Of a DNA stretch of 64,000 bases, positions 10,886-48,934 are shown piece after piece. The notes under the pieces were generated by a model. It worked only from the letters and a program-made list of their open reading frames with translations. It was not told the origin of the DNA and ran no database searches. Source of the stretch: Escherichia coli (GTDB lineage: Bacteria; Pseudomonadota; Gammaproteobacteria; Enterobacterales; Enterobacteriaceae); assembly GCF_044324875.1 (NCBI RefSeq), contig NZ_CP172185.1; one strand, given 5' to 3'. The position numbers and the translations under genes are program-made. Within the stretch, counting starts at the first letter, position 1. Every line of letters begins with the position of its first letter.

Positions 10886-12268
10886 TTATTGCTGCCAACC
10901 GCCACCAAGTGCGGTATATAAAGAAATTTCGTTGACCTGACGGGCATAATTCAGGTCAAGTAAGGTTTGTCGGGTTGCAAATAAAGAACGCTCGGCATCC
11001 AGCACTTCCAGATAACTGACTGCGCCGTGCTGATATAATGCCCGCGCCCGTTGCAAAGTAATTTGCAGCGACGCCAGATAACGCTGCTGGGCGCTGATTT
11101 GATCGTTCAGGCTTTGACGTAATGCCAGCGCATCTGCCACTTCTTTAAAGGCGTTCTGGATTTTCTGTTCATAATTCACTACCGACTGCTGCTGGCGAAT
11201 TTCGGCGATATCCAGATTGGCCTGGTTGCGTCCGGCATTAAAAATGGGGATCTCAATTTTAGGAATAAAATTCCACATCCCGCTGCTGGCGTTAAATAAT
11301 GACGACAGATCGCTGCTGGCGGTTGATATTCCGCTGGTCAGGCTTATAGATGGGAAAAATGCCGCGCGTGCGGCCCCAATATTGGCATTAGCCGCCATTA
11401 ACGCGTGTTCAGCTTCCATAATATCCGGGCGCTGCAATAAGATTTGCGACGACAAGCCCGCCGGTAATTTAACGCTTTGCAGGCTGTCGCTGTTTACTGT
11501 CTGCGCTTGCGGCAGCTTGCCGTAGCTTCCCAATAATAGTTGCAATGCATTATTCGCCTGCGCCAGTTCCCCCTGACGTTTAGCGATGTCGCTGCGGGTA
11601 CTTTCAATCACCCCGCGAGCCTGTTCCAGCGCCAGAACATTGCTGCTACCGGTCAACAGTTGTTTTTCGACAAACGCATATGACTGCTGATAATTACGCA
11701 GCGTTTCTTCGGCTATTTGCAATTGCGCATACGCCAGCTGCTGATTGAAATATCTTTGCGCGACATTAGAAACCAGCAGAATATGCACCGCGCGCTGGGC
11801 TTCCTCAGTGGCTAAATAATTTTGTCGCTCGGCTTCGCTCATGTTCTTTAAGCGACCGAAAAAATCGAGATCAAAGCTGGCGTTAAGGCCAGTCGAGAAC
11901 TCCCGCGTCGTGGCTGAATCGCCTTTAAGATTGCCGCTCCAGCTGCCGCTGCCCTCGCCATTGAGCTGTGGGTAGCGGTCGGCATCGGTCAGACGATATT
12001 GCGCCCGCGCTTCCTGCACTTTCAGCGTCGCCATGCGCAAATCCCGGTTATTCACCAGCGCCTCGCTAATCAGCGTCTTCACCTGATTATCAACAAAAAA
12101 GGTGCGCCAGCCCGCGTTCTGGTAGTTATCTGCTGCGTTAACCAGGCCGTTCTGGTTGAGTGAGAACTGCTGCGGCACGGGCATTGCCGGGCGCTGATAA
12201 TCCGGTGCCAGTGAACAACCGGTTAGCGCAAGGGCCACACAAAATGGCAGAAGTTTACAAGGAGACAT
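10886..12268 (-). CDS. cusC: Outer membrane efflux channel CusC (lipoprotein)
   Basis: OMF family protein; lipobox LTGCS near the N-terminus. Confidence 0.93.
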   Translation of the reverse strand: MSPCKLLPFCVALALTGCSLAPDYQRPAMPVPQQFSLNQNGLVNAADNYQNAGWRTFFVDNQVKTLISEALVNNRDLRMATLKVQEARAQYRLTDADRYPQLNGEGSGSWSGNLKGDSATTREFSTGLNASFDLDFFGRLKNMSEAERQNYLATEEAQRAVHILLVSNVAQRYFNQQLAYAQLQIAEETLRNYQQSYAFVEKQLLTGSSNVLALEQARGVIESTRSDIAKRQGELAQANNALQLLLGSYGKLPQAQTVNSDSLQSVKLPAGLSSQILLQRPDIMEAEHALMAANANIGAARAAFFPSISLTSGISTASSDLSSLFNASSGMWNFIPKIEIPIFNAGRNQANLDIAEIRQQQSVVNYEQKIQNAFKEVADALALRQSLNDQISAQQRYLASLQITLQRARALYQHGAVSYLEVLDAERSLFATRQTLLDLNYARQVNEISLYTALGGGWQQ

Positions 12269-24266: not shown

Positions 24267-26876
24267 TTATGAGCCAGGATGTGTGCAAACTGCCGAAATA
24301 ACAGTGACGGCTTGCTGTAAGCTTTGCTTCGGCAATACATAGTGCGCAATGCAGCGTGAGTTTGCACCGTCTCCCCACTGAACCAGTAATTCACCAGACA
24401 ATGGCGCACCGCTTAAATAAACTTGCCCGTCATCACCCACCATACTGGTTATTCCGGTACTGTTTTCCCGTACCAGTGATCCAAACGGCACCGGTTTTCC
24501 GCCCTGGGTAACGGTAATGAGCGCCCGCACGCCTATGCGGGTATCAAAATTGGCACGAACCAACGCGCCTTGCGTCGGCACAACACTGCTAATATTTTTT
24601 TCAACATCGATGGAATTCCCCATCGTATTGGTATCAAGCGCGATACGGTTATACCGATAAACCGTGGCATACGGCATCACCGCATAGCCGCGCCAGTCGG
24701 TTAAAATGCCAGTTTGATTTTCAATGCGTACACCGCCTGCGCCAGGCGCTTTAATCAAAACATTGGTATCCCCTAAAGGCTGGCTCAGCGTTATGCCATT
24801 TTCATGTCCGACCACACCGCCAGACAGCTGCCAGTTAACGTCATGTTGATCGCGGTCGTAGTTATACCCGACCCCCAGCGTACCGTAAGCGGCCTGCCAG
24901 TTTGCCGTAGCGCTGCCCGTATACCCATTATTCGAGGTATCGCCCTGGCTTACGTGATAACTCAGGTTGTGGCCTTCCAGTAAGGTCCCACCTACACCTG
25001 CCAGCCAGCTATTTTGCCCGTTGCTGTTACGGTTGGCGTTAAAGGAGGCATAAGCGCGGTCGAGCGCATTTTCCCGGGTATAGCGACGTTTGGTCAAAAC
25101 ATTGAAAGGCACTGAAACATTAAGTCCGACAATACGTTCGTTATCGGGGATCCCTACAGATTCATTCCACGAAAATGAGAGCGAATAACTGATGCCAACC
25201 CAGCTGCTGGTATACCCCACCTGATACCACGTATCTGAATCCGAAGTATTCCAGTATTTTTGATGGGTACCAGAGATATAAAGCGAGCCAAAGTCATTAA
25301 GTGATTGTGAAATATTTAACTGCAAACGGTCTTTACGGCTAAAGCGTAAATTGTGGTAATTCACGATTATCGGTTCATCGCGATGCTCACCGTCGTAATC
25401 GTAATCATACTCGTACCCCTCCATTCGACGATACGCAACATCATCAAGGGTATAAAAACCTTGTGTCGAATAGCGGTAACCCATTAACTGAAAATTGGTG
25501 CCGAAAGTGTTCATTGATTTCGCATAGAGGAAGCGAATGGAATCCCCCTCATGACGACTATCGTCGGCTAACTGACTGCGCGCATGGGTCACATCCAGAG
25601 ATACCGCCCCCCAGTTTCCGAGATTGCGCCCCAGCCCTAATAAAAAGGCGGTGTAATTGGCAGATAATTGCGTCCCGCCGTAGGCAGTAAATTCCTGTGG
25701 TAAGCCGCCGAGTGCCGTGCCCTGAAAAAAGAAAGGCGACGATTGCTGACTATTACCGCTACGAAAATCACCCGCCGTCAGGTCAAATTTGAAACGCCCT
25801 TCGCGTTGTAAAATTGGCACTGTCGAATACGGAATAGTGTAATTCTGCTGATTACCATCGCGCTCGTCGATGGTGACGTCCAGATCGCCATTTGAAGATG
25901 TCGGGTGTAAATCTGTAATTTCAAAAGCGCCGGGGGAAACATAGCTTTGATAGATAATAAAACCATTTTGCCGAATCGTTAGCTGGGCCGCCGTACGGGC
26001 AATCCCACGTACCGTTGGGGCAAACCCTTGCTGGCTATCAGGATACATATTATCGGAAGAATAAAGCCGTACACCTCGAAATCCGACGCCATCGAAAATA
26101 TCACTCCCTGTATTACCGTCTCCCATTACCAGTTCACTTTTCAGCGGAATAATGGCGCGCTGTACCCAGGTGCCAATATTATTCCACTGTTCTGAATGAT
26201 ATCCATTTCCGCGAAAATAGTTCCAGGAACCATTGTTGCGTAAACGCCACGGGCCAATATTAATCCCGCTGAGTTCACTAAAAAAATAGCTATCGTTACC
26301 ATTACCTCTGTTACCGGTGAAATTATAATTCAGGAGTAAAGCAGGAATACCTTAATCCCACTCTTCAGGCGGAATGTAACCGTGAGCGCTACTCAACAAC
26401 GCTATCTGAGGAATAGTGATGTTCAGGCGCATCGCTGCAAAATCAAAGTTAATTGTGGCATCAGGTACAGCTTTCAGTAAATCGATGCATTTATTATTTT
26501 GCTGCTGGGCTAACTCGGGGAATGCACTGCTATTAAGGCCAATTCGTTCAAGGAGTGCCTGATTAAAACAAGGCATTAACCCACCTGATTTATCACCTGT
26601 ATTTACTGTCGTCGATTCAAATACGATATCCTGTGAACCAATGAACTCATCATTACGCCAGAGATCCACCCGATACACACCCGCAGGTTGATGATTACCT
26701 CTCTCAAAGCGCGATAAATCAGCAACGGATGTGCCATTCTCTAATAAAAATGCCGGGTTGAAATAACTTTCCGCATAGCTTAAAAAGGAGGGTAAAATGG
26801 CAAGAGATGAATAACAAATTCCGGCCAGACACCAGGTATACCTCTGCGGAATATCCGTAGTAGTGGGTATTTTCAT
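24267..26876 (-). pseudogene. sfmD: Fimbrial usher SfmD interrupted by an in-frame TAA stop at 26352..26354
   Basis: A single 870-codon frame is split only by the TAA at 26352..26354; translation on both sides is usher-like (...[20 protein letters not shown]...). The ORF track shows it as 174-aa and 619-aa pieces. Confidence 0.8.
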
Positions 26877-26906
26877 AATTAGCTCTGATATTGTCAGATG
26901 ATTCGG

Positions 26907-27599
26907 TTAGTTTAAGTTCACTTCTCTGACCGGGGTTACTGAACCATAATCATTAACGGTCTGAAATTTCAGCTTTCCCTGCACTCCTGAGGGTAAGGGA
27001 ATTTGTGAATTAACTCTGGGTGCAGCCATAGCATTCCCCAACTTTTGGCTGCCCACTTGTAAGTTAACCAGGGTGACATAAAAAGGTGATGGATTATGAA
27101 CATTGATATAGTTACCGGATCGCGAAAACTTGAGTGTGTCCGGCGCTTCTGCGGGTAATTCTTGTAATTGAATTGGACGGAGAAATAACTTCATGCGCGA
27201 TAAAATCGCCAGTTGCAAAACATTCCTGCCGTTCAATGCATTTTTATCTACCGAAGGGATCGTCTTAACATTCATCCAGAACAGAGACTCACGATCTGCC
27301 GCCAGCGGTGGACCGGTGTAAATAATACGCAAAGTATTTTCGCTTTTGGGTTCACTAACAAACAGTGGCGGTGTAATGATGAATGACTTTTCTTTTACAC
27401 CGCTGCTGTTTTCAATCCACGAATTGACCAGAAAGCGCTCATTGGTATGGCTATTTCTAATCCATACTGCAGTCTGTTTAGCATCAGCGGGATAAATAAT
27501 ACGCGTGGCACCTAATGCGATCCCTCCGGCAGCATGGGCGCTGGCCGAAATGATTAAATAAAATATAATGAACATCAATAACTTTATTTTAGTCATCAT
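26907..27599 (-). CDS. sfmC: Periplasmic fimbrial chaperone SfmC
   Basis: 230 aa, signal peptide, PapD-like chaperone. Confidence 0.9.
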
Positions 27600-27818
27600 A
27601 GTTAATACGCCTTGTGTATTCCTGACGGCAAAAATAAGAATTATAAAGAAATGATTGCTTTGGTTTCTTACAACACATCATTCCCTTTTCATTTAATAAA
27701 GCGGCATGATACAAAGTGAACATGATTTCGATTTACATTGCCACCATACCGCTTCTGACAACCGGTACATTACTTTGTTATAAGACGTGATATATAATTC
27801 AAAACAACGTGGTTTTGA

Positions 27819-28361
27819 TTATTCGTATCTCATAATAAAAGTCGCGTCAGCATTTGCTTGCCCTGCTGATGCACTTGTACCGGTGCCTTTATAACGTGCA
27901 GAAAAATGAAGAACGTTGGTCCCGGGGATCAAGTTCTGGTTGGTTGAGAAGCTATTCCCATCAGGTTTGAGAATTGCGGATGTATTATCAAGTATTTCAA
28001 TACCGACACCCGTTGCTGTTGTTGTATTAGTACTGGATGCAATGGCCAATAAATTATCATTGATTGCATCCGCCTGACCAGAAAATGCAACGGCAGCATT
28101 AGCGGCAACGACAGGATCGCAGTCGTTCAACTGTATAGTGAATGGAATTAATGCAGAGGTATTACCAACAGCATTGAAAATATCGGTACGATATTGACCG
28201 AGTGTGACAACCTGGTCTGCCGAGTCAGTATTCACTGAACAGGCAGCATTCACCAGTTCGCCCTCAAAGTGAATTGTACCGCCATCTACAACGGCAGCAT
28301 AACTACCCGTAGCGGCGAATAGTGCGGCGGCCAGCGCAGACGAAATAAATCTTAATTTCAT
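27819..28361 (-). CDS. sfmA: Type 1-like fimbrial major subunit SfmA
   Basis: Start at internal Met [14 protein letters not shown]...; fimbrillin with C-terminal motif. Confidence 0.88.
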
Positions 28362-28831
28362 ATATATTCCTTCAATCTCATTTATCGACTCCACATCCGT
28401 ATATAACCGATTACTTTATTTAAGACACTGATAGTAGTAAATTCCTTTTTATCCTCTAAGAATGTCTTAATTGAAAATATGCACTCTATTCTAAAAAATA
28501 GAGAGCCCCGTTAGATGAATACTTCCGCGCAAAATATATTCAACACAAATATAGACCTGAAGCGGTAAATTACCAGGCTGAAAATTCTTTTTATATTGTC
28601 AGGTATTTCTTAAATCATCTTAATCCTTTGACAAGGAAATAAGTCAGTTCCAGATTTACAACGCCATCATGGACGAAAAATGAAGCTTTCAATCTCAGCG
28701 ACAGTACGCCTCACCTTCGCACGAGGTCGCTTCACGCGATAAATCTGAAACGAAACCTGACAGCGCGCCCCGCTTCTGACAAAATAGGCGCATCCCCTTC
28801 GACCTACGTAACAGATGGAATCCTCTCTCTG

Positions 28832-29698
28832 ATGGCAGCAAAGATTATTGACGGTAAAACGATTGCGCAGCAGGTGCGCTCTGAAGTTGCTCAAAAAGTT
28901 CAGGCGCGTATTGCAGCCGGACTGCGGGCACCAGGACTGGCCGTTGTGCTGGTGGGTAGTAACCCTGCATCGCAAATTTATGTCGCAAGCAAACGCAAGG
29001 CTTGTGAAGAAGTCGGGTTCGTCTCCCGCTCTTACGACCTCCCGGAAACCACCAGCGAAGCGGAGCTGCTGGAGCTTATCGATACGCTGAATGCCGACAA
29101 CACCATCGATGGCATTCTGGTTCAACTGCCGTTACCGGCGGGTATTGATAACGTCAAAGTGCTGGAACGTATACACCCGGACAAAGACGTAGACGGTTTC
29201 CATCCTTATAACGTCGGTCGCCTGTGCCAGCGCGCGCCGCGTCTGCGTCCCTGCACCCCGCGCGGTATTGTCACGCTGCTTGAGCGTTACAACATTGATA
29301 CCTTCGGCCTCAACGCCGTGGTGATTGGCGCATCGAATATCGTTGGCCGCCCGATGAGCATGGAACTGCTACTGGCAGGTTGCACCACCACCGTGACTCA
29401 CCGTTTCACTAAAAATCTGCGTCACCACGTAGAAAATGCCGATCTATTGATCGTTGCCGTCGGTAAGCCAGGCTTTATTCCCGGTGACTGGATCAAAGAA
29501 GGCGCAATTGTGATTGATGTCGGCATCAACCGTCTGGAAAATGGCAAAGTTGTGGGCGACGTCGTGTTTGAAGACGCGGCTAAACGCGCCTCATACATTA
29601 CGCCTGTTCCCGGCGGCGTTGGCCCGATGACGGTTGCCACGCTGATTGAAAACACGCTACAGGCGTGCGTTGAATATCATGATCCACAGGGTGAGTAA
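28832..29698 (+). CDS. folD: Bifunctional methylene-THF dehydrogenase/methenyl-THF cyclohydrolase FolD
   Basis: 288 aa, recognised FolD ([19 protein letters not shown]...). Confidence 0.96.
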
Positions 29699-29699
29699 C

Positions 29700-29912
29700 A
29701 TGGCGACATTTTCTTTAGGTAAACATCCGCACGTTGAGCTGTGCGACTTGCTGAAACTGGAAGGCTGGAGCGAAAGCGGCGCGCAGGCGAAAATCGCGAT
29801 TGCCGAAGGCCAGGTGAAAGTCGACGGTGCGGTTGAAACGCGCAAACGCTGCAAAATCGTCGCCGGGCAGACAGTGAGTTTTGCCGGTCACAGCGTACAG
29901 GTTGTTGCCTGA
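29700..29912 (+). CDS. ybcJ: S4-domain RNA-binding protein YbcJ
   Basis: ATG at 29700, two bases after folD stop (MATFSLGKHPHVELCDLL...), 70 aa. Confidence 0.88.
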   Translation: MATFSLGKHPHVELCDLLKLEGWSESGAQAKIAIAEGQVKVDGAVETRKRCKIVAGQTVSFAGHSVQVVA

Positions 29913-29919
29913 TCCCTTT

Positions 29920-29951
29920 CCCGGCCTGTAACAACAGGCCGGTTCTCTTTT
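29920..29951 (+). terminator. Rho-independent terminator after folD-ybcJ
   Basis: Hairpin CCGGCCTGT-AACA-ACAGGCCGG followed by TTCTCTTTT. Confidence 0.7.
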
Positions 29952-30019
29952 CAGACTTTTGCCCTCTACGCCCCATTCATCCATGCTGATAGCATCGACA
30001 TTTTGCCGAAGCGATCATC

Positions 30020-30541
30020 ATGCCAACCGTTATTACGCACGCCGCCGTTCCCCTTTGCATTGGTTTAGGGTTGGGTTCGAAAGTCATCCCTCCGCGTCTT
30101 TTATTTGCCGGAATCGTCCTGGCGATGCTGCCTGATGCCGACGTCTTGTCGTTTAAATTTGGCGTTGCTTACGGCAATGTTTTTGGTCATCGCGGGTTTA
30201 CCCATTCGCTGGTGTTTGCGTTTGTTGTCCCGCTGTTATGTGTGCTGATTGGACGTCGATGGTTCAGGGCTGGGCTGATTCGCTGCTGGCTGTTTTTAAC
30301 CGTCTCGTTGTTATCGCACAGCTTGCTGGATTCGGTAACCACTGGCGGTAAGGGCGTTGGCTGGCTGTGGCCGTGGTCAGATGAACGCTTTTTCGCTCCC
30401 TGGCAGGTGATTAAAGTCGCGCCGTTTGCATTGTCTCGTTACACCACGCCGTACGGACATCAGGTGATTATTTCTGAATTGATGTGGGTATGGTTGCCGG
30501 GGATGCTACTGATAGGAATGTTGTGGTGGCGCAGACGATAA
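30020..30541 (+). CDS. ybcI: Inner membrane protein YbcI (DUF457)
   Basis: 173-aa polytopic membrane ORF in the expected position. Confidence 0.85.
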   Translation: MPTVITHAAVPLCIGLGLGSKVIPPRLLFAGIVLAMLPDADVLSFKFGVAYGNVFGHRGFTHSLVFAFVVPLLCVLIGRRWFRAGLIRCWLFLTVSLLSHSLLDSVTTGGKGVGWLWPWSDERFFAPWQVIKVAPFALSRYTTPYGHQVIISELMWVWLPGMLLIGMLWWRRR

Positions 30542-30565
30542 CCGGATGCGAAAACTCGCATCCGG
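30542..30565. terminator. Hairpin terminator between convergent ybcI and cysS
   Basis: Palindrome CCGGATGCG-AAAACT-CGCATCCGG directly after the ybcI stop. Confidence 0.55.
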
Positions 30566-30576
30566 CAATAGCGCAA

Positions 30577-31962
30577 TTACTTACGACGCCAGGTGGTCCC
30601 TTGCGGGCCATCTTCCAGCACGATCCCCATCTCGTTAAGACGGTCACGCGCCGCATCTGCCGCCGCCCAGTCTTTCGCTTTACGGGCATCCAGACGCTGT
30701 TGAATTAACGCTTCAATCTCAGCCACTTCGCTGTCGTCTGCCTGCGCGCCGCTTTGCAGGAACGCTTCCGGTTCTTGCTCCAGCAGGCCCAATACGGCGG
30801 AAAGTTTACGCAGATGAGACGCCATCGCGTTCGCCGCTGCCATATCTTCTGCTTTCAGACGGTTTACTTCACGCGCCATATCAAACAGTACGGAATAGGC
30901 TTCCGGGGTGTTGAAATCGTCGTCCATCGCTTCAATAAAGCGCGCTTCAAACGCTTCGCCACCGGCAGGCGCAACGGTTTTATCGGTGCCGCGCAGCGCA
31001 GTGTAGAGACGCTCCAGCGCCGCACGCGCCTGCTTCAGGTTCTCTTCGCTGTAGTTCAGCTGGCTGCGATAGTGGCCTGACATCAGGAAGTAACGCACGG
31101 TTTCAGCATCGTAGTATTTCAGCACATCGCGCACGGTAAAGAAGTTACCCAGCGATTTCGACATCTTCTCGCGGTCAACCATTACCATCCCGGAGTGCAT
31201 CCAGTAGTTCACATACTGACCATCATGCGCACAGGTGGACTGAGCGATTTCGTTCTCGTGGTGCGGGAACATCAGGTCTGAACCGCCGCCGTGGATATCA
31301 AAGTGGTTACCCAGCTGCTTGCAGTTCATTGCCGAACATTCAATGTGCCAGCCTGGACGGCCCGCGCCCCACGGAGACGGCCAGCTCGGTTCGCCCTCTT
31401 TCGACATCTTCCACAGAACGAAGTCCATCGGGTTGCGTTTGTCGTCGACCACGTCAACGCGCGCGCCTGCCTGCAGCTGGTCGAGATCCTGACGCGACAG
31501 CACGCCATATGTCGGATCGGTCGGTACGTCAAACATCACGTCGCCGTTGTCCGCCACATAAGCGTGACCTTTGGCGATCAGTTGTTCAGTGAGTTCAATA
31601 ATTTCTGCGATATGGTGCGTCGCGCGCGGCTCCATATCCGGGCGCAGAATGTTCAAAGCATCAAAATCTTTGTGCATTTCGGCGATCATGCGATCCACCA
31701 GCGCCACAAAGCTTTCGCCATTTTCATTGGCGCGTTTGATGATTTTGTCGTCGATATCAGTAATGTTGCGCACATACTTCAGCTTATAGCCGAGGAAACG
31801 CAGATAGCGCGCAACCACGTCAAAGGCAACAAAGGTACGCCCGTGACCGATATGACAGAGATCGTAAACGGTGATTCCACACACGTACATGCCGACTTCC
31901 CCGGCGTGAATAGGCTTAAATTCCTCTTTTTGGCGTGTCAGAGTATTGAAGATTTTTAGCAT
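30577..31962 (-). CDS. cysS: Cysteine-tRNA ligase CysS
   Basis: 461 aa with HIGH motif (CHIGHGRT) and KMSKS. Confidence 0.97.
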
Positions 31963-32135
31963 CGAAGATTCCGTTTAGACATGTGTGGGTAATTGAGTTG
32001 CGTATAATACCCATATTTCCCGCGCGAATCAGCATACATTGCGTGATGATCCGATCGTGCGGTTATGCTATAACACCACCCTATATATGACCCGAACCGG
32101 GTTGAAGCACCAATCAAACGGAACAGGATGCAAAA

Positions 32136-32630
32136 ATGGTTACTTTCCACACCAATCACGGCGATATTGTCATCAAAACTTTTGACGATAAAGCACCTGA
32201 AACAGTTAAAAACTTCCTGGACTACTGCCGCGAAGGTTTTTACAACAACACCATTTTCCACCGTGTTATCAACGGCTTTATGATTCAGGGCGGCGGTTTT
32301 GAACCGGGCATGAAGCAAAAAGCCACCAAAGAACCGATCAAAAACGAAGCCAACAACGGTCTGAAAAATACCCGTGGTACGCTGGCAATGGCCCGTACTC
32401 AGGCTCCGCACTCTGCAACTGCACAGTTCTTCATCAACGTGGTTGATAACGACTTCCTGAACTTCTCCGGCGAAAGCCTGCAAGGTTGGGGTTACTGCGT
32501 GTTTGCTGAAGTGGTTGAAGGCATGGACGTGGTAGACAAAATCAAAGGTGTTGCAACCGGTCGTAGCGGTATGCACCAGGACGTGCCAAAAGAAGACGTT
32601 ATCATTGAAAGCGTGACCGTTAGCGAGTAA
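32136..32630 (+). CDS. ppiB: Peptidyl-prolyl cis-trans isomerase B (cyclophilin)
   Basis: 164 aa, recognised PpiB. Confidence 0.96.
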
Positions 32631-33471: not shown

Positions 33472-33981
33472 ATGTCTTCCCGCAATAATCCGGCGCGTGT
33501 CGCCATCGTGATGGGGTCCAAAAGCGACTGGGCTACCATGCAGTTCGCCGCCGAAATCTTCGAAATCCTGAATGTCCCACACCACGTTGAAGTGGTTTCT
33601 GCTCACCGCACCCCCGATAAACTGTTCAGCTTCGCCGAAAGTGCCGAAGAGAACGGTTATCAGGTGATTATTGCGGGCGCAGGCGGCGCAGCGCACCTGC
33701 CTGGCATGATTGCCGCCAAAACGCTGGTGCCAGTGCTGGGCGTGCCAGTACAGAGCGCCGCACTGAGCGGTGTCGATAGCCTCTACTCCATCGTACAAAT
33801 GCCGCGCGGCATTCCGGTGGGTACGCTGGCGATTGGTAAAGCTGGCGCGGCAAACGCGGCATTACTGGCAGCACAAATTCTTGCGACTCATGATAAAGAA
33901 TTGCACCAGCGTCTGAATGACTGGCGCAAAGCACAAACTGATGAAGTGCTGGAAAACCCGGACCCCCGAGGTGCGGCATGA
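33472..33981 (+). CDS. purE: N5-carboxyaminoimidazole ribonucleotide mutase PurE
   Basis: Start at ATG 33472 ([20 protein letters not shown]...), 169 aa. Confidence 0.96.
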
Positions 33982-35045
33982 AACAGGTTTGCGTCCTCGG
34001 TAACGGGCAGTTAGGCCGTATGCTGCGTCAGGCAGGCGAACCGTTAGGCATTGCTGTCTGGCCGGTCGGGCTGGACGCTGAACCGGCGGCAGTGCCTTTT
34101 CAACAAAGCGTGATTACCGCTGAGATCGAACGCTGGCCGGAAACCGCCTTAACCCGCGAGCTGGCGCGCCATCCGGCCTTTGTGAACCGCGATGTGTTCC
34201 CGATTATTGCCGACCGTCTGACTCAGAAGCAGCTTTTCGACAAGCTTCACCTGCCGACCGCACCGTGGCAGTTACTTGCCGATCGCAGCGAGTGGCCTGC
34301 GGTGTTTGATCGTTTAGGTGAGCTGGCGATTGTTAAGCGTCGCACTGGTGGCTATGACGGACGCGGTCAATGGCGTTTACGCGCCGATGAAACCGAACAG
34401 TTACCGGCTGAATCCTACGGCGAATGTATTGTCGAGCAGGGCATAAACTTCTCTGGTGAAGTGTCGCTGGTTGGCGCGCGCGGCTTTGATGGCAGCACCG
34501 TGTTTTATCCGCTGACGCATAACCTGCATCAGGACGGTATTTTACGCACCAGCGTCGCTTTCCCGCAGGCCAATGCGCAGCAGCAAGCGCAAGCCGAAGA
34601 TATGCTGTCGGCGATTATGCAGGAGCTGGGCTATGTGGGCGTGATGGCGATGGAGTGTTTTGTCACCCCGCAAGGTCTGCTGATCAACGAACTGGCTCCG
34701 CGTGTGCATAACAGTGGTCACTGGACGCAAAACGGTGCCAGCATCAGCCAGTTTGAGCTGCATCTGCGGGCGATTACCGATCTGCCGTTACCGCAACCGG
34801 TAGTGAATAGCCCGTCGGTGATGATCAACCTGATTGGTAGCGATCTGAATTATGACTGGCTGAAACTGCCGCTGGTGCATCTGCACTGGTACGACAAAGA
34901 AGTCCGTCCGGGGCGTAAAGTGGGGCATCTGAATTTGACCGACAGCGACACATCGCGTCTGACCGCGACGCTGGAAGCCTTAATCCCGCTGCTGCCGCCG
35001 GAGTATGCCAGCGGCGTGATTTGGGCGCAGAGTAAGTTCAGTTAA
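33978..35045 (+). CDS. purK: N5-carboxyaminoimidazole ribonucleotide synthase PurK
   Basis: 355 aa ATP-grasp protein; 4-bp overlap with purE. Confidence 0.96.
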
Positions 35046-35061
35046 CCTGGTGCTCATTTGA

Positions 35062-35146
35062 TTGCCGGATGCGGCGTGAACGCCTTATCCGACCTGTGGA
35101 AACAGTGATATTTCCAGGTCGGATAATCAGCATCGCATCAGGCACA
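35062..35146. repeat. REP/BIME repeat pair between convergent purK and ybcF
   Basis: GCCGGATGCGGCGTGAACGCCTTATCCGACCT plus an inverted REP-like copy about 25 bp downstream. Confidence 0.6.
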
Positions 35147-35164
35147 AATACCGAATGCCTACGA

Positions 35165-36058
35165 CTACAGCGAAATACAGGTCCCCGCTTCGCCCGCCAG
35201 CGTCTCTTCAATCCGCGATAACGCCCCAATCCACGCGGGTTTACCACGGCTTCTGACATAGCCACTCACCGCCATTACCTTCGGCCCCATCGAACCATCG
35301 GCTTTGGCAAATGGCGCTAAATCATCCGGTGTGGCACGGCGAATGGCGCGTTGCTGCGGCGTTCCCCAGTTTTCATATACCGCATCAGCATCGGTGAGGA
35401 TCACCAGCCCATCGGCGTTAATCTGCTCGGCGAGCAACGCAGCGGCGAGATCTTTATCAATCACTGCTTCACTCCCTGCTCCGTCATCCGTCACAGGCAC
35501 ACCGCCGCCGCCACTGCAAATCACCACATGCCCCTCTTTGAGCAACAACTCGATGGCTTCGCTGTCGAGAATTTTACGCGGTTGCGGAGACGCTACCACC
35601 CGGCGCAAATATTTACCATCACGTTTCATCTGCCAGCCGTAAGCCGCTTCCAGTGCCTCTTGTTCTTCTGGCTGATAAACCGGACCGATAAACTTCTCTG
35701 GCTGCAAAAACGCCGGATCATCAGGCGAAACCTCAATGCGCGTCAGCACCGTCGTGACAGGCGGCATCTGCGGCTGTGCGCTCAAGCTCTGCGCCAGCAT
35801 ATAGCCAATCATCCCCTGACTTTCCGCCACCAGCACATCCAGCGGATACGGTTCTACCTCTTTCCACGCCAGATTCTGCAATGCCAGCAGCCCCACCTGC
35901 GGTCCGTTGCCGTGAACAATCGCCAGCCGATAAGAACGGGCCAGGCGCGCCAGCGCGGGTACAGCACTGGCAATATTACGATATTGATTTTCTGCCGTCA
36001 GCGCCTCACCGCGCTGGAGTAAGGCGTTGCCCCCAAGAGCCACAACCAGTGTTTTCAT
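35165..36058 (-). CDS. ybcF: Carbamate kinase-like protein YbcF
   Basis: 297 aa carbamate kinase fold ([14 protein letters not shown]...). Confidence 0.9.
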
Positions 36059-36870
36059 GGTTTTCCTTGTAATAATTGTTGACCAAGCCAGAACCCCAGC
36101 AGCGTATCTGCCCCTGACGTATGCCCCAGCGCCAGCAGCGAATCAATTGCAACAGCGGTACGTTTCGGGCAACTCAGAGCATGGACAAAGTGCAGGAGTG
36201 GCGAGGCGAAATATCCTTGCGCGGCATAACGTAAATAACTGACGCTCACCGCTGTGGTAACGAGTTGAAGATTGTCGGAACAGGTAAAAAATGGGCGACC
36301 GGAGCGCGCATCTAAAGCGCCATAATACCAGGCCGCCAGCAGCATTCCGCTCAGCGTGTCATCATGACTCGGCGTTAATCCCGGACCTTTGCCCAGCCAG
36401 TGCCGCCAGTCGGTCTTCACGCCATTGAGCGCGGCCTGAAAACAGTGGCGAAACTGGCGTAACTCAGCAGGAAGCGGATCGCCTGCCGCCAACGCCAGTG
36501 GCCCGAAAAGCCCGGTTTCCTCCGCGCGTTGCATCCATGCCGCTGCAAGCGGTTGAGGATGCGCAGGCGGCGTAATACGCAGCAAACAATAACGCTGTGG
36601 CTGTTTAACCGTGAAACGCCCGAGGCGAATCCCTTGAGCCACAACCTGTGGTCGTTCATTGCCGCATAATCCACCGCATAACGCATCGAATTGCGCGCGG
36701 CGAAGCACCCATCCTCCGGGGCCGAAACCACTACCCTGACGATGCAGCGTTAACAGTTCGCCGCTTTCCGTCATCAGGTTAATCGCCCGTCGCCACACTC
36801 CCGCTAACCGCCAGGACTGGCAATAATTCGGTGCGCTACGGCTGGCAAGCAGAGGATGGATGAACGTCAT
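36055..36870 (-). CDS. ylbF: YlbF (DUF2877)
   Basis: 271 aa, 4-bp overlap with ybcF, GAGGAA ribosome-binding site. Confidence 0.85.
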
Positions 36871-36880
36871 TGCGCGTTCC

Positions 36881-38139
36881 TCAACCTATCCCCATGCTTG
36901 CAGCCAGTGCTTCCAGCGCCTGTTCAAAGCAGGCCAACGGTGCCCGCACAGTGCCTGCGCCAATCTGCCCGATCCCCGCCTCTTTATGGGCGATACCGGT
37001 ATTGATGAGTGGCGTAATGCCGGTTTCTACCACGCGACGAATATCCAGCCCCGGCACGCGCCCTGAAAATCCCAGCTTGGGATCTGCAACTGCATATTGC
37101 GTTCAAGGTAAATTTCCGCCATCTCTTCAGATACCGCTCTGGCCGCTTCCATGCCACCCGCACCGACAAAGCGCGTTACGCCAGGCGCTGCGATCATTGC
37201 CGCACCTCCGATACCAAAGGTTTCGGTAATCGCGCTATCGCCCATATCCGGGTTCGCCTGCTCCTGCGAGAAGCCGGTGAAAAACAGACCTTGCGGAGTG
37301 TTTACAGGCGCAGTAAACCAGCGTTCGCCCAGCCCGCTGACCCGAATCCCGAACATATTGCCGTTGCGGGTCATAGCCGTAACGATGCTGCCTGAGCGGA
37401 TCATCGCGCCAGCATCCATCGCCGCCTTGCAGTAGGCCATCGCGAGGTTGAGGAAGAACTGATCGGTCACGCTGAGGAAATCCATCACTTCCGCAATGTG
37501 CTGTTTATCATGATCGAGGCGAGCAATTTGTGGGGCCAGCGTACGCATTAACAGTGCTGAGGAAGCAATATTGCGTTGATGGAACTCATCGCCCATGGTA
37601 ATGCCCTGCGCCATCATCGCGGTGAGATCGATACCGCGCTCCATGCGCCCCAGCGCCGCGCTTAATACTGGCATTAACACATCGCGCATCCAGCGATGGC
37701 GAGTCAGGACATCTTCGCCGTAAGCGCCAAAACGCATCACTTTGCCGATACCTTCGTTGAGGTTGCAGTACGCCCGGTTGCCGTCGGTCACGTTCTCGAC
37801 CACCAGCATCGGCATACTGGCAGAAGTAATGCCGCCCATTGGCCCGACGGCATTCACATGGTGACAAGGAATGAAGTTCACTTCCCCCTGATCCAGCATT
37901 GCCAGCGCCTGCGCTTCATCTTTCGCCCAGCCTTCAAACAGACATGCGCCCACGCACGCCCCTTTCATGGGTCCGGTCATCTCCTGCCAGCGCATTGGCG
38001 GCCCGGCGTGAAGCAGTGTTTTGCCCTCGTTTAGTTCGCTGATAAGTGAAGAAGCCGGTTGCACATCCAGCCAGTGTGGACGAGCACGACGAATTTGTTC
38101 GATAACCGCAGCATTGGCTTGCGCCACTGATGTAAACAT
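36881..38139 (-). pseudogene. ylbE: ylbE (DUF1116) with a frameshift near the 3' end
   Basis: Main frame stops at 37027 after 370 aa. An alternate reverse frame is open from about 37102 to a TGA at 36881..36883 and encodes ...[70 protein letters not shown], ending 10 bp before ylbF. The combined length is about 419 aa. Confidence 0.6.
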
Positions 38140-38148
38140 GGGAACCCC

Positions 38149-39816
38149 TTATTGCAAACGTTCTAATAAACGAGCCAGTTTTTTATTGCCGCCGGCGACT
38201 GGCGACCATTGGTAATGCACAACCGGTTTGCTGGCGCTTTGTAGCTCCAGCGCAAAGCTGCGTAATCCGATGTTAATCACGGCGACGTTTTCCAGTAATG
38301 ACGGTGTGTGTTGCTGTGCGGCAGGCGAGAGCGGATGAATTAACGCTGCCGCCAGCAAGGTGGCTTCCGGTAGCGAACTCACGACAGCAATCCCCGCATC
38401 TTCCAGCGTGGCGATTTGCTGCGAGCGGCATTGCGGGTCACGTTCGGTACCTGTCACCGTGGCAATGGCGTACAGCGGTTGGCTGTCTGAACGCGCGGCA
38501 CAGGCTTTTTGCCAGGCGCTCACCAGCGAGGCGGCAGGATCGGCGGTCGCACCGAAGCCAATCACGACATCAAGCAGCAACACGCGCACTTGCGGTTTAG
38601 CGCCGAGATCGGCAATTAACAGGTTGCGTAAGGTCGGGTCGATCATCGGATGGGGACGCCCGACGGTGTAAAAATCATCGCCCAGGTCGAGGATCTGATG
38701 TCCGTCGGCGTCGAGCATCATGCCGTGATGATGGGTATCGTCGGCTTCCACGCCAAGGTGTCCGGCAAGTAATCCCGCCGCTTCAGCAGCCAGCGTACCG
38801 CCGGTATACAAACCGCAAATAAATCCGCTGCTGACAGGTGCTATTGCGTTACGTCGCGCCGTGACGCGTGAAAGCAGGCAAGCCAGGCGTGCGGCCTCAT
38901 CCAGCGAGGAGGCAAACCAGACATTTTCGTCGCGGGCCACCGCCGGGGTATAACCTAAAAACAGCGCCACCGTCGGTTTGCCGGTTGCTTTCATGGCCTT
39001 AACAATTTTCAGACGCACAGCTTCGGCAGGTGGTTTTGAAACAAATGCCAGCACTTCGCTTTTCTCGTCTGCACTGAGCATTTCCAGCGCCGTCAGCGCA
39101 CTGATGCCGCCCACTTCACGGCTGAGGTCGCGGCCGCCAAGGCCAATCGCGTGAGTAATTCCCTCCCCTGCCAGCGCAATCTGCGAGCACAGCTCCTGAA
39201 TCCCGGTACCGGAAGCGCCAATGACGCCAATGTTGCCTTCCGGCATCACGTTAGCAAAAGCCAGCGGCGTGCCGGCAATCATCGACGTACCGCAGTCCGG
39301 CCCCATCACCAGCAAGCCTTTTTCCCGCGCGCGGGTTTTAAGTTGGATTTCATCTTCCAGCGTGACGTTATCGGAGAACATCATCACGTTGAGGTTGCGA
39401 TCCAGCGCCTGATTCGCCAGCTCCGCCGCATACTCGCCAGCCACTGAAATCAGCGCCAGACTGGCGTCGGGTAATTTCTGACAGGCACTGTCCCAGCGAC
39501 GCACCTGCGTCAACGCCTGGCTGCTGCCTGAACCCTGCGCCAGTTGTTTTAGCGCCTCTTCAAGCTGTTGCATAATCGCCTGCGCGATCCCCGCATCCGC
39601 CGCTTCGCTACGAATTGCCACGCAAATATCGTTCGGCGTGGCGTTATTAAAATCGTCATGCCAGAAACCTGTCGTCTCTAATAACGCTTTATTGGCGGGC
39701 GTACCCATCATTACAGAAACATCATCAACATTTTCTGATTCGCTTAGTTTTCGTGAAATAATCATTAAACTGACCGAATCCTGAAAACACCCTTTTTTAA
39801 TAAAGGCGTGGATCAT
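38149..39816 (-). CDS. fdrA: FdrA (acyl-CoA synthetase-like, CoA-binding domain protein)
   Basis: 555 aa, recognised FdrA. Confidence 0.9.
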   Translation of the reverse strand: MIHAFIKKGCFQDSVSLMIISRKLSESENVDDVSVMMGTPANKALLETTGFWHDDFNNATPNDICVAIRSEAADAGIAQAIMQQLEEALKQLAQGSGSSQALTQVRRWDSACQKLPDASLALISVAGEYAAELANQALDRNLNVMMFSDNVTLEDEIQLKTRAREKGLLVMGPDCGTSMIAGTPLAFANVMPEGNIGVIGASGTGIQELCSQIALAGEGITHAIGLGGRDLSREVGGISALTALEMLSADEKSEVLAFVSKPPAEAVRLKIVKAMKATGKPTVALFLGYTPAVARDENVWFASSLDEAARLACLLSRVTARRNAIAPVSSGFICGLYTGGTLAAEAAGLLAGHLGVEADDTHHHGMMLDADGHQILDLGDDFYTVGRPHPMIDPTLRNLLIADLGAKPQVRVLLLDVVIGFGATADPAASLVSAWQKACAARSDSQPLYAIATVTGTERDPQCRSQQIATLEDAGIAVVSSLPEATLLAAALIHPLSPAAQQHTPSLLENVAVINIGLRSFALELQSASKPVVHYQWSPVAGGNKKLARLLERLQ

Positions 39817-40132
39817 AACAACTCCTTAAAAATTGCACCCATGGCAATTGCACGAGCAGTGTTAATGTGGCGATTACGGTATCGATGACAACGAGCAAAT
39901 AAGGTGATGAATATCACACAGGGATTATTAACAAAAGAATTCAAATAACCGCCAGGCTATTACGTGTTATTTTTTAATAAGCGTGGTTGTTTTAAAAACC
40001 AGGTTAAAAGCGAGCGGATTATCAAATAAATTCTAACTATATTTTTTTGCCTGTCTGGATCACATAATCCAGATATTTTCCCTGTATGTTAATTGCAGTC
40101 ATGCTTCACACCGTCGTTAAAAAGGAAGACAG

Positions 40133-41182
40133 ATGAAAATCAGTCGGGAAACACTCCACCAGCTAATTGAGAATAAACTCTGCCAGGCTGGGTTAAAACG
40201 TGAGCACGCTGCAACCGTGGCTGAAGTATTGGTTTACGCCGATGCCAGAGGGATCCACTCTCATGGCGCGGTGCGTGTTGAATACTACGCAGAACGCATT
40301 TCAAAAGGCGGCACCAACCGCGAACCGGAGTTTCGTCTTGAAGAAACCGGGCCGTGTTCGGCAATTTTACATGCCGACAATGCCGCCGGACAGGTCGCGG
40401 CTAAAATGGGTATGGAACATGCCATCAAAACCGCCCAGCAAAAAGGCGTTACGGTGGTCGGTATCAGCCGGATGGGTCACAGCGGCGCAATCTCTTATTT
40501 TGTGCAGCAGGCAGCCCGCGCCGGATTAATTGGTATTTCGATGTGCCAGTCCGATCCAATGGTTGTGCCGTTTGGCGGCGCGGAAATTTACTACGGAACT
40601 AACCCACTGGCCTTTGCCGCGCCGGGAGAAGGCGACGAGATCCTTACCTTTGATATGGCGACTACCGTACAGGCATGGGGAAAAGTGCTCGACGCCCGCT
40701 CGCGTAATATGTCTATCCCGGATACCTGGGCGGTCGATAAAAACGGAGCACCAACAACCGATCCATTTGCAGTTAACGCCCTGCTCCCTGCCGCCGGACC
40801 GAAAGGGTATGGCCTGATGATGATGATTGACGTCCTCTCAGGCGTCTTACTCGGCTTACCGTTCGGGCGACAGGTTAGTTCGATGTATGACGATTTACAC
40901 GCCGGGCGTAATTTGGGGCAATTACATATCGTTATTAACCCGAACTTTTTCTCCTCCAGCGAATTATTTCGTCAACATCTTAGCCAGACCATGCGCGAAT
41001 TAAATGCCATAACCCCCGCGCCCGGTTTTAACCAGGTTTATTATCCCGGACAGGATCAGGATATTAAACAACGCAAAGCCGCCGTCGAAGGCATCGAAAT
41101 TGTTGATGATATTTACCAGTATTTAATTTCCGACGCGCTTTATAACACGTCATACGAAACGAAAAATCCCTTTGCGCAATAA
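40133..41182 (+). CDS. allD: Ureidoglycolate dehydrogenase AllD
   Basis: 349 aa, recognised AllD. Confidence 0.93.
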   Translation: MKISRETLHQLIENKLCQAGLKREHAATVAEVLVYADARGIHSHGAVRVEYYAERISKGGTNREPEFRLEETGPCSAILHADNAAGQVAAKMGMEHAIKTAQQKGVTVVGISRMGHSGAISYFVQQAARAGLIGISMCQSDPMVVPFGGAEIYYGTNPLAFAAPGEGDEILTFDMATTVQAWGKVLDARSRNMSIPDTWAVDKNGAPTTDPFAVNALLPAAGPKGYGLMMMIDVLSGVLLGLPFGRQVSSMYDDLHAGRNLGQLHIVINPNFFSSSELFRQHLSQTMRELNAITPAPGFNQVYYPGQDQDIKQRKAAVEGIEIVDDIYQYLISDALYNTSYETKNPFAQ

Positions 41183-41203
41183 TTATTGAGACAGGACTTT
41201 CTT

Positions 41204-42439
41204 ATGATTACACATTTTCGTCAAGCCATAGAAGAAACGCTGCCCTGGCTTTCCTCTTTTGGCGCTGACCCAACGGGTGGTATGACCCGTTTACTTTATT
41301 CGCCGGAATGGCTGGAAACTCAGCAGCAATTTAAAAAAAGAATGGCAGCAAGCGGGCTGGAAACACGTTTCGATGAAGTGGGCAATTTATACGGTCGCCT
41401 GAGTGGGACCGAATATCCACAGGAAGTGGTTCTGAGCGGTTCGCATATCGATACCGTGGTTAACGGCGGTAACCTCGACGGGCAATTCGGCGCGCTGGCG
41501 GCGTGGCTGGCAATTGACTGGCTGAAAACGCAATACGGCGCGCCGTTACGTACGGTCGAAGTGGTGGCGATGGCAGAAGAAGAAGGCAGCCGCTTCCCGT
41601 ATGTCTTCTGGGGCAGTAAAAATATCTTTGGGCTGGCGAATCCTGACGACGTGCGGAATATCTGTGATGCCAAAGGAAATAGTTTTGTCGATGCGATGAA
41701 GGCTTGCGGATTTACTCTGCCGAACGCCCCACTAACTCCGCGTCAGGATATTAAAGCCTTTGTCGAACTGCATATCGAACAGGGCTGTGTGCTGGAAAGT
41801 AATGGGCAGTCAATTGGCGTGGTGAATGCAATTGTCGGGCAACGTCGCTATACGGTGACGCTGAATGGCGAATCAAACCATGCAGGCACCACGCCGATGG
41901 GTTATCGTCGTGATACGGTTTACGCTTTCAGTCGCATTTGCCATCAGTCTGTCGAAAAAGCGAAAAAGATGGGCGACCCGCTGGTGCTGACCTTTGGCAA
42001 GGTGGAGCCGCGCCCGAATACGGTGAATGTGGTACCGGGTAAAACCACGTTCACCATTGATTGTCGTCATACCGATGCTGCCGTGCTGCGCGATTTCACC
42101 CAACAGTTAGAAAACGACATGCGGGCGATTTGCGATGAAATGGACATTGGTATTGATATCGATTTATGGATGGACGAAGAACCCGTGCCGATGAACAAGG
42201 AACTGGTCGCCACCCTGACAGAATTGTGTGAACGCGAAAAACTGAATTACCGGGTGATGCACAGTGGTGCCGGGCACGACGCGCAAATTTTCGCGCCTCG
42301 CGTACCAACCTGCATGATTTTTATCCCCAGCATCAACGGGATCAGCCATAACCCGGCGGAACGCACCAATATTACCGACCTTGCCGAAGGGGTCAAAACG
42401 TTGGCACTCATGCTTTATCAACTTGCCTGGCAGAAATAA
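41204..42439 (+). CDS. allC: Allantoate amidohydrolase AllC (M20 peptidase family)
   Basis: Start at ATG 41204 (MITHFRQAIEE...), 411 aa. Confidence 0.93.
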   Translation: MITHFRQAIEETLPWLSSFGADPTGGMTRLLYSPEWLETQQQFKKRMAASGLETRFDEVGNLYGRLSGTEYPQEVVLSGSHIDTVVNGGNLDGQFGALAAWLAIDWLKTQYGAPLRTVEVVAMAEEEGSRFPYVFWGSKNIFGLANPDDVRNICDAKGNSFVDAMKACGFTLPNAPLTPRQDIKAFVELHIEQGCVLESNGQSIGVVNAIVGQRRYTVTLNGESNHAGTTPMGYRRDTVYAFSRICHQSVEKAKKMGDPLVLTFGKVEPRPNTVNVVPGKTTFTIDCRHTDAAVLRDFTQQLENDMRAICDEMDIGIDIDLWMDEEPVPMNKELVATLTELCEREKLNYRVMHSGAGHDAQIFAPRVPTCMIFIPSINGISHNPAERTNITDLAEGVKTLALMLYQLAWQK

Positions 42440-42449
42440 GGAGTCATAA

Positions 42450-43235
42450 ATGGGATATTTAAATAACGTCACCGGTTACCGCGATGATTTACTGGCTAAC
42501 CGTGCGATTGTTAAACACGGTAATTTCGCACTTTTAACCCCGGATGGTCTGGTAAAAAATATTATTCCGGGCTTTGAAAATTGTGACGCGACAATCCTCT
42601 CCACGCCAAAGCTGGGTGCCTCTTTTGTTGATTATCTGGTCACACTGCATCAAAACGGTGGCAACCAACAGGGCTTCGGTGGCGAAGGCATTGAAACGTT
42701 CCTGTATGTGATCTCTGGAAATATCACTGCCAAAGCTGAAGGCAAAACATTTGCCTTAAGCGAAGGTGGCTATCTTTATTGCCCACCAGGCTCCTTAATG
42801 ACGTTTGTTAACGCCCAGGCCGAAGACAGCCAAATCTTTTTATATAAGCGCCGCTATGTTCCGGTAGAAGGCCATGCACCGTGGCTGGTTTCTGGCAATG
42901 CCAGCGAACTGGAACGCATTCATTATGAAGGCATGGACGATGTTATTCTGCTGGATTTTCTGCCCAAAGAGTTAGGTTTTGATATGAACATGCATATCCT
43001 CTCTTTTGCGCCAGGTGCCAGCCACGGTTATATCGAAACTCACGTCCAGGAACACGGTGCCTATATTCTTTCCGGTCAGGGGGTTTATAACCTCGACAAT
43101 AACTGGATCCCGGTGAAAAAAGGCGATTACATCTTTATGGGCGCTTATTCCTTACAGGCCGGTTATGGCGTAGGGCGTGGTGAAGCGTTTAGTTATATTT
43201 ACTCGAAAGATTGCAACCGCGACGTAGAGATTTAA
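42450..43235 (+). CDS. allE: (S)-ureidoglycine aminohydrolase AllE (YlbA, cupin)
   Basis: 261 aa bicupin, downstream of allC. Confidence 0.92.
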   Translation: MGYLNNVTGYRDDLLANRAIVKHGNFALLTPDGLVKNIIPGFENCDATILSTPKLGASFVDYLVTLHQNGGNQQGFGGEGIETFLYVISGNITAKAEGKTFALSEGGYLYCPPGSLMTFVNAQAEDSQIFLYKRRYVPVEGHAPWLVSGNASELERIHYEGMDDVILLDFLPKELGFDMNMHILSFAPGASHGYIETHVQEHGAYILSGQGVYNLDNNWIPVKKGDYIFMGAYSLQAGYGVGRGEAFSYIYSKDCNRDVEI

Positions 43236-43277
43236 GTCATACCACTCGCCTGATTATTTTTAGCTATGTTGGATTTT

Positions 43278-43304
43278 GCCACGGTTTATACCGTGGCTTT
43301 TTTT
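43278..43304 (+). terminator. Rho-independent terminator of allDCE
   Basis: GCCACGG-TTTATA-CCGTGGC followed by TTTTTTT. Confidence 0.75.
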
Positions 43305-43320
43305 GCGGTAAATTCAGGTA

Positions 43321-43350
43321 AAAAACGGATGCGGGATAAAATGCATCCGC
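43321..43350 (-). terminator. Rho-independent terminator of glxK
   Basis: On the reverse strand, hairpin CGGATGC...GCATCCG followed by a T-run (A-run 43321..43326 on the plus strand). Confidence 0.65.
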
Positions 43351-43364
43351 TCTAATGGCAAGAG

Positions 43365-44510
43365 TCAGTTTTTAATTCCCTGACCTATTTTAATGGCGCA
43401 GGCAATATTTCGTGCGCTGTTGAAGAGATTGGTTTCACCGCTGGCGAGCACTTCGGCTAAAGGTGCCAGACGTGGCAAAATGCTGAACACCGCGTCAATG
43501 CCGTACTGGTGCACCACTTCCACGCCGTCACCCAATACGCCAGCAATCCCAATCACCGGGACATTAAACTGCTTCGCCACCGACGCCACGCCCAGCGGTG
43601 CTTTACCGCCTGCCGTTTGCGAGTCGATGCGCCCTTCCCCGGTGATCACCAGCGCTGCGCCCTGCACCGCCTGCTCCAGGTTGACCGCCCGCAGTACAAT
43701 CTCAATACCCGGTTTAATATCCGCATTGAGGAATACCGCCGCCGCAATGCCCATCCCGCCCGCCGCGCCGCCGCCCGCCATCTGGCAGACGTTGATTTCA
43801 GTTTGCTGTTGTAAAACACGGGCGTAATTTTGCAGTCCCTGCTCCAGCTCTTCGACCATTTCCGGCGTTGCCCCTTTTTGCGGGCCAAACACCGCCGCCG
43901 CGCCGCGTGCCCCTACCAGCGGATTATCAACGTCACATGCTACTTCAATATGGCAGTTCGCCAGACGCGGATCGCATTCCTCCATCTCAATGCTTGCCAC
44001 GCGCGCTAAATTGCCGCCGTTAGCCGCCAGCACCTGACCGTCGGCATCGAGAAAACGCACACCAAGCGCCTGCGCCATGCCCATACCGCCGTCGACCGTC
44101 GCACTGCCGCCTATGCCGAGAATAATATGGCGAATGCCGTTATCCAGCGCATGACGAATTAACTCCCCCGTACCAAAACTGGAGGCCAGCAACGGATTAC
44201 GCTTTTCAGGCGCGACCAGCATCAGACCACTTGCTGCCGCCATCTCAATCACCGCTGTTTTCCCGTCGCCGGTAAGGCCATAAAAAGCATTCACTTTTTC
44301 GCCCATCGGCCCGCAGACTTCAAGCGTCACGATGTTGCCGCCCGTCGCTGCGACCATCGCATCCACCGTTCCTTCGCCGCCATCCGCTATCGGCAAACAG
44401 ATATAGTGCGCATCGGGAAAGAGGGTCGAAAACCCGGCTTTAATTGCCTGACAACATTTTTCTGCACTTAAGCTCTCTTTAAACGAGTCTGGCGCAATGA
44501 CAATCTTCAT
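43365..44510 (-). CDS. glxK: Glycerate 2-kinase GlxK
   Basis: Start at Met [14 protein letters not shown]..., 381 aa. Confidence 0.93.
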
Positions 44511-44531
44511 TATCAATCCTTTTTCAACAAA

Positions 44532-45839: not shown

Positions 45840-45889
45840 ACCTTAACCGGAGAATGCCCGCCGCAAGGACGGGCATTGCAGGGGCCAGA

Positions 45890-47251: not shown

Positions 47252-47311
47252 AACAAACTCCTTGTAAAATACAGATTGGTTTTTTAACTCAATGTTCAAT
47301 ATCGGGATTAA

Positions 47312-48766: not shown

Positions 48767-48934
48767 AAATCCCTCTTAATTTCACGTATCGAATAACGTT
48801 GTTTTAATCTAGCTATGAGGAACAAATAAAATAAAAATATTATTTTTAATACTGAAGCAACATCTTTGGCTGCTTTCTTTTTAAATATTGCTGGCCGATT
48901 CATTTTCTGATATCGGCCATTTTTATTGTGGGTA

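Follow-up and report, generated by a model that had tools for sequence, protein, structure and literature searches.

Chaperone-usher assembly requires the usher for polymerisation and secretion of the pilus subunits. FimD, the usher of the type 1 pilus (PDB 3RFZ, 4J3O, 6E14), is homologous to SfmD from end to end with an E-value of about 1e-260. It is a paralogue encoded at another locus and must not be confused with sfmD itself.

The sfm (Salmonella-like fimbriae) operon is silenced by H-NS in the laboratory (PMC5797941). When its expression was forced in K-12 it promoted binding to eukaryotic cells (Korea et al. 2010, in the account given by PMC5797941). In MG1655, deletion of each of 12 chaperone-usher operons, sfmACDHF included, improved growth (PMC8174762). 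A survey of Escherichia genomes found 370 of 449 chaperone-usher clusters intact and about 18% disrupted, and reported that sfm is absent from phylogroup B2 (PMC3559732). A 'partial inactivation' of sfm has been described for some groups (PMC3604780), and in S. flexneri 2457T sfmD figures among the listed pseudogenes (PMC6854044).

The nearest intact allele of the gene considered here is the sfmD of AF40, an E. coli isolate from a human rectal swab in the UK (chromosome NZ_OZ547043.1). It is of the b0532 type and is annotated as an intact usher of 869 aa (WP_059341606.1). The gene which we compare with it resides in a stretch of 64,000 nucleotides of E. coli DNA, contig NZ_CP172185.1, called the window throughout. 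Locus, synteny and the PapC_N/Usher/PapC_C architecture are the same in both, and 2609 of 2610 nucleotides are identical. The remaining one is decisive: codon 175 is GAA in AF40 and TAA in the window. We hold, with a probability of roughly 93%, that codon 175 was recently converted from GAA to TAA by a single G-to-T change within one E. coli lineage, and that this change was passed on to the descendants of that lineage and ended the function of the Sfm usher.

The sfm locus and its usher gene

In the window sfmD occupies 24267..26876 on the minus strand. Its assignment, as originally proposed, is borne out by synteny, folD-sfmACDHF-fimZ-argU, and by 98-100% identity to annotated sfmD genes. 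The neighbourhood is canonical, i.e., cysS, ybcI, ybcJ, folD, sfmA, sfmC, sfmD, sfmH, sfmF, fimZ and tRNA-Arg. The operon is identified as sfm by its site between folD and fimZ-argU, the gene order sfmA-C-D-H-F and the near-identity to annotated sfmD. RefSeq has given the names fimA, fimC and fimH to some genes of the sfm locus. A megablast query with the 2610 bases matched sfmD in 4200 of the 5426 complete E. coli genomes, with a coverage of 80% or more and an identity of 95-100% in 4101; the matches listed were annotated as sfmD.

Translation of the minus strand of 24267..26876 yields 870 codons, i.e., a frame of 869 sense codons plus the terminator, with one internal stop at codon 175. This is the TAA at 26352..26354; because it is read on the minus strand, the plus strand has TTA at these positions. 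The original prediction of a single in-frame TAA in a frame of about 870 codons was thus accurate in coordinates and codon count; it had left the strand unstated.

Usher-like sequence on both sides of the stop, also claimed at the outset, was recovered by Pfam. In the intact SfmD of AF40 the domains are PapC_N at 38-187, Usher at 202-777 and PapC_C at 786-850. In the TAA allele PapC_N is found in an upstream ORF of 174 aa, and Usher and PapC_C in a downstream ORF of 619 aa. The three families (PF13954, PF00577, PF13953) are in the usher order in the intact allele and across both fragments of the TAA allele. A gene with PapD_N and PapD_C domains, i.e., a PapD-like chaperone, is immediately upstream of sfmD, and subunit genes with Fimbrial domains are situated on both sides. 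What is absent is the single uninterrupted polypeptide of an usher, consisting of signal peptide, N-terminal domain, barrel, plug and C-terminal domains, since the frame is closed at codon 175. The sfmD of the window is a member of the FimD/PapC usher family by descent; it is presumably no functional usher gene.

The remainder of the operon, on the minus strand like sfmD, is preserved. The major subunit gene sfmA (27819..28361), the gene for the adhesin-like subunit, sfmH (23247..24254), and the minor subunit gene sfmF (22721..23236) are each 100% identical to the AF40 genes and free of internal stops. The gene for the periplasmic chaperone, sfmC (26907..27599), is intact as well and differs from AF40 by one base at 27572, a private L10F exchange in the signal peptide. 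The expectation that these four genes had been spared was therefore well founded: none has an internal stop and all are 99.9-100% identical to AF40 genes which are intact according to RefSeq. On the plus strand, the response-regulator-type fimbrial regulator fimZ (22086..22718) is intact, with one synonymous difference from AF40 and no internal stop. The locus is bounded by argU, a tRNA-Arg(UCU) gene at 21767..21843 on the minus strand. It is followed directly by envY (junction at 21721..21767) with no prophage in between, whereas AF40 has an intD-type prophage at argU. K-12 carries DLP12 at this site.

Altogether, 57 genes of the window were compared with annotated relatives. Only sfmD and ylbE are broken, and among the 57 sfmD is the only gene which aligns without gaps and has an internal stop. 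Near the 3' end of cusC (10890..10948, minus strand) two 1-nt indels, a few bases apart, compensate each other when compared with strain BEC1-S17-ESBL-09, so that the length of 1383 nt and the frame are kept. The allD gene (40133..41182) is intact in the window and frameshifted in AF40. The identity to AF40 is a mosaic: it amounts to 99.97% over the argU-sfm-cysS block (21765..32630) and 100% for ppiB, while the majority of the genes from purE through allS (33472..55104) reach 97.3-99.2%. This suggests a recombination boundary near lpxH/purE. The spacer between ybcF and purK is about 120 bases long in the window (35045..35165), whereas AF40 has an IS1397 between these genes; IS1397 or IS421 copies taken from reference loci have no match in the window. 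Between ybbP and mnmH (56331..59658, minus strand) we find a gene for an Hcp-family type VI secretion effector; a tandem pair of DUF2931 paralogues, about 90% identical to each other, comes after it.

A glutamate codon replaced by an ochre codon

The sole difference between the two sfmD alleles in 2610 nt is nucleotide 523, a T in the window and a G in AF40. It corresponds to a coding-strand change of G to T at window position 26354. Three further relatives also read TGG GAT GAA GGT here, i.e., GAA is present in all four relatives that were read. A sense codon such as GAA, CAA or AAA had been anticipated; it is GAA. Glu175 has thus given way to an ochre codon through a transversion, G to T in the coding strand.

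Clearly, an in-frame stop is present where the orthologues have a sense codon. This holds for the four relatives and for the complete genomes, in which the 31-mer with TAA is found 0 times and that with GAA in 4024 genomes. The lesion is real and heritable, as it is found in independent isolates. Usher homology on both sides, and identity to an intact sfmD at all other positions of the 2610 nt, show that a conserved gene has been hit by a specific lesion and that the stop is not a chance occurrence in a non-coding frame. An overlapping feature on the plus strand was considered as well and discarded: no ORF of 60 aa or more covers the stop site on that strand, and elsewhere inside sfmD there is one chance ORF of 75 aa only.

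Carriers of the stop and decay of sfmD in other lineages

How frequent is the stop? A 31-mer centred on it seeds a megablast match only if the match is exact. With TAA at its centre it is found in 0 of 5426 complete E. coli genomes. As a positive control, the same 31-mer with G for T, i.e., with GAA, matches at 100% in 4024 of the 5426, which is about 98% of the genomes with sfmD. An 81-base query centred on the stop likewise has no full-length exact match in any complete E. coli genome; the best full-length matches have one mismatch. The possibility that the stop is a normal feature of reference genes, with a downstream restart annotated, can be dismissed: no complete RefSeq E. coli genome has the stop, and the GAA control matched 4024 genomes. 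The observation which was named in advance as speaking against pseudogenisation, a reference sfmD with the same stop and an annotated restart, was accordingly not encountered in this set.

In a collection of 15 billion proteins the exact 174-aa product is recorded from 56 contigs (GenBank SRB09251.1, 'fimbrial outer membrane usher protein [Escherichia coli]') and in 58 blocks of the contig index. The assemblies with this exact product are labelled E. coli. A Shigella origin, at which the pseudogenes might have hinted, was rejected on account of these labels, the lack of matches to IS1397 and IS421 from the reference loci, and the finding that only sfmD and ylbE are broken among the 57 genes compared. 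The DNA of four carriers was read, so that the evidence for the reality of the stop consists of independent assemblies. TAA is present in each of them. SRR21141798 (L006) has 0 differences from the window in 10,689 bases, SRR31139948 (L005) has 2 in 12,525 bases, SRR31740797 (L007) has 1 in 8,087 bases, and contig UDIE01000009.1 of GCA_900482385.1 (L012) has 1 in 4,860 bases.

The few differences are informative with respect to relative age. At codon 10 of sfmC, in the signal peptide (window position 27572), the window and L006 have TTC (Phe), whereas L005, L007, L012 and AF40 have CTC (Leu). L005 differs further from the window at codon 21 of envY. As all four carriers have TAA in spite of 0-2 further SNPs relative to the window, the stop predates the micro-diversity of the carriers. 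Conversely, the SNP in codon 10 of sfmC is younger than the stop because the three other carriers keep CTC. A stop common to isolates which have since diverged is inherited and is no artefact.

On the larger scale the inactivation appears to be recent and lineage-specific. Compared with the AF40 gene there is no second lesion or other substitution, and after the stop 695 codons are still open and identical in sequence to the intact allele. The designation as 'early' pseudogenisation fits these data, as a second lesion in sfmD is absent when it is compared with the intact allele.

The stop is not the only way in which sfmD has been lost. The identical 619-aa remnant ORF is recorded from 336 contigs. 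Ten loci from this set were read; one is L012, a carrier of E175*, and nine are others. These nine have eight distinct lesions within the first 250 codons of sfmD. Five are nonsense mutations, W210* by TAG, W210* by TGA, W218* by TGA, G225* by TGA (two loci) and W231* by TAG. Two are 1-nt deletions, in codons 197 and 217, and one is an IS1 insertion near nucleotides 497-526. The backgrounds are about 98% identical to the TAA allele. A separate frameshift allele after residue 217 (P0008) brings the total to at least nine other independent lesions in sfmD. The pseudogenes of other E. coli and Shigella resemble that of the window in being inactivated in the first third, in leaving the same 619-aa ORF and in having operons which are otherwise complete. 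They differ in position, type of mutation and background (about 98% identity), i.e., they are independent events and do not represent the E175* allele. The stop is real but it is ordinary pseudogenisation of a cryptic chaperone-usher operon, and decay of this kind is common in sfmD.

Truncated products and the fate of Sfm fimbriae

What is left of the usher? The truncated ORF (26352..26876, minus strand) encodes 174 aa, comprising a signal peptide, a complete usher N-terminal domain and a linker. SfmD 37-174 aligns to residues 2-134 of mature FimD, and since the alignment begins at residue 37 the signal peptide comprises approximately residues 1-35. The product ends at the motif YIPPE(L/E)WD. 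The stop corresponds approximately to residue 135 of mature FimD, and the translocation-domain constructs which have been crystallised start at positions equivalent to SfmD 164 (FimD, 3OHN), 167 and 178 (PapC, 2VQI and 3FIP). By these alignments the stop is placed at the junction between the periplasmic N-terminal domain and the β-barrel, and the truncated protein is predicted to be an N-terminal domain plus linker with essentially no barrel, no plug and no C-terminal domains.

Downstream of the stop 75 former codons of sfmD (176-250; 26127..26351, minus strand), still identical to the intact allele, are untranslated. The first in-frame start is an ATG at 26126, codon 251. It opens the remnant ORF of 619 aa (24267..26126, minus strand), which encodes the barrel from codon 251, the plug and the C-terminal domains and is devoid of a signal peptide. 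The 21 nt upstream of this ATG (CTGAAAAGTGAACTGGTA and the preceding three bases) have no AGGA, GGAG or GAGG Shine-Dalgarno core. Usher-domain residues 202-250 are absent from a restart product, which consequently is without the first barrel strands. Within the 64-kb window the only tRNA is tRNA-Arg(UCU), and no suppressor tRNA is present. A suppressor tRNA or a structured RNA at the stop was examined as a candidate and rejected, as the window has only tRNA-Arg(UCU), sok and STnc480, none of them near sfmD. The sok sequence (Rfam, 80 bits) belongs to a hokE/sok type I toxin-antitoxin locus at 15..315, and the sRNA STnc480 (85 bits) is at 43242..43308, both on the minus strand.

From these data the following sequence of events may be envisaged. 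Translation would stop at the junction of N-terminal domain and barrel and release a precursor of at most 174 residues, about 139 after removal of the signal peptide. This fragment would have neither pore nor plug nor C-terminal domains. The rest of sfmD would not rescue it because in-frame translation could not start again until 76 codons further downstream, and its product would have no export signal. Without an usher, complexes of SfmC and subunits would find no platform on which to polymerise and to cross the outer membrane. With the usher lost, Sfm fimbriae should not be formed in the lineage, not even upon activation of the operon, which is normally silenced by H-NS. Thus, in the TAA lineage Sfm fimbriation is presumably lost. 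The damage may extend beyond sfmD. A long stretch of untranslated mRNA ahead of downstream genes is a classic setting for Rho-dependent polarity. Ahead of sfmH and sfmF approximately 2.1 kb of mRNA would be untranslated, and this probably lowers the expression of both in this manner; sfmH would be exposed because it is downstream of the stop. The intact downstream genes may therefore be under-expressed through transcriptional polarity.

Could TAA be a sequencing or assembly error, with GAA in the true genome? The original prediction had mentioned an error as the alternative, and it is true that only a single base separates the window from the nearest intact allele and that no complete RefSeq genome has TAA. 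However, the same TAA was read in four independently sequenced assemblies of one lineage which differ at other sites, the exact truncated protein is recorded from 56 contigs, and the change is a substitution and not a homopolymer indel. The probability of an error is close to nil. A different objection would be that a working usher is still made, be it by readthrough of TAA, by an ochre suppressor tRNA or as a two-piece usher upon re-initiation. The 695 open downstream codons, identical to the intact allele, and the surviving 619-aa ORF would be in line with this; yet the open frame is simply explained by a recent mutation. In E. coli, a TAA with G as the next base terminates translation efficiently. 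Further, the 64-kb window has no suppressor tRNA, and the first start is at codon 251 with no AGGA, GGAG or GAGG core in the 21 nt ahead of it. A protein initiated there would have no signal peptide and so could not reach the outer membrane, and it would lack Usher residues 202-250 and hence the first barrel strands. We consider a functional usher exceedingly unlikely.

Two further views accept that the usher is lost and ask whether something was gained. The truncated product might have acquired a role as a secreted, soluble usher N-terminal domain which binds chaperone-subunit complexes in the periplasm, a decoy or dominant-negative. In the fragment the signal peptide is retained and the N-terminal domain is complete, and the end of the fragment is within about 5 residues of the ends of the soluble N-terminal FimD constructs in the PDB (1ZE3, 1ZDV), which bind FimC-FimH. 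In sequence the truncated SfmD corresponds to mature FimD 2-134, essentially that soluble construct. It is mildly unusual that the truncation would leave almost exactly the domain which structural biologists have expressed alone. Upon de-repression a 174-residue product that is made and exported might sequester SfmC-subunit complexes or cross-reacting FimC-subunit complexes and would then be a natural dominant-negative modulator of pilus assembly and not inert debris. We give this little credence. The operon is silent as a rule, we see no changes that would be compensatory or refining, and in other lineages sfmD is truncated at many different positions, which argues against selection for one particular fragment. 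A role for the fragment is thus very improbable. Somewhat better founded, yet still unlikely, is the proposal that the loss was positively selected and is not neutral decay of a silent operon, e.g., by saving costs or by avoiding an immunogenic structure or a phage receptor. The stop was kept as the lineage diversified, other lineages have suffered at least nine further independent lesions in this region of sfmD, and MG1655 grew better upon deletion of each of its 12 chaperone-usher operons (PMC8174762). However, relaxed selection on an operon silenced by H-NS (PMC5797941) would lead one to expect recurrent lesions just as much, and with 0 of 5426 complete genomes the allele is rare. We therefore retain as the preferred reading a recent, inherited nonsense mutation which presumably ended usher function.

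The significance of this mutation is small beyond bookkeeping; the chaperone-usher operons of E. coli are well known to turn over, and this is one more dated example. For annotation, a single sfmD pseudogene should be recorded in place of separate ORFs of 174 and 619 aa, which some GenBank records call as two proteins. The E175* SNP together with a nearby frameshift in ylbE could serve as a lineage marker. ylbE (DUF1116; 36881..38139, minus strand) has a 1-nt deletion near 37052, GCCTGGGG to GCC-GGGG, which shifts the frame at about codon 363 and results in a product of 370 aa. An 81-mer with this deletion has an exact match in 0 of the 5240 complete E. coli genomes that have the region. The exact 370-aa product is recorded from 133 contigs (SRB09175.1), compared with 56 for the sfmD stop; given this larger number, the ylbE frameshift may be the earlier of two markers of this lineage.
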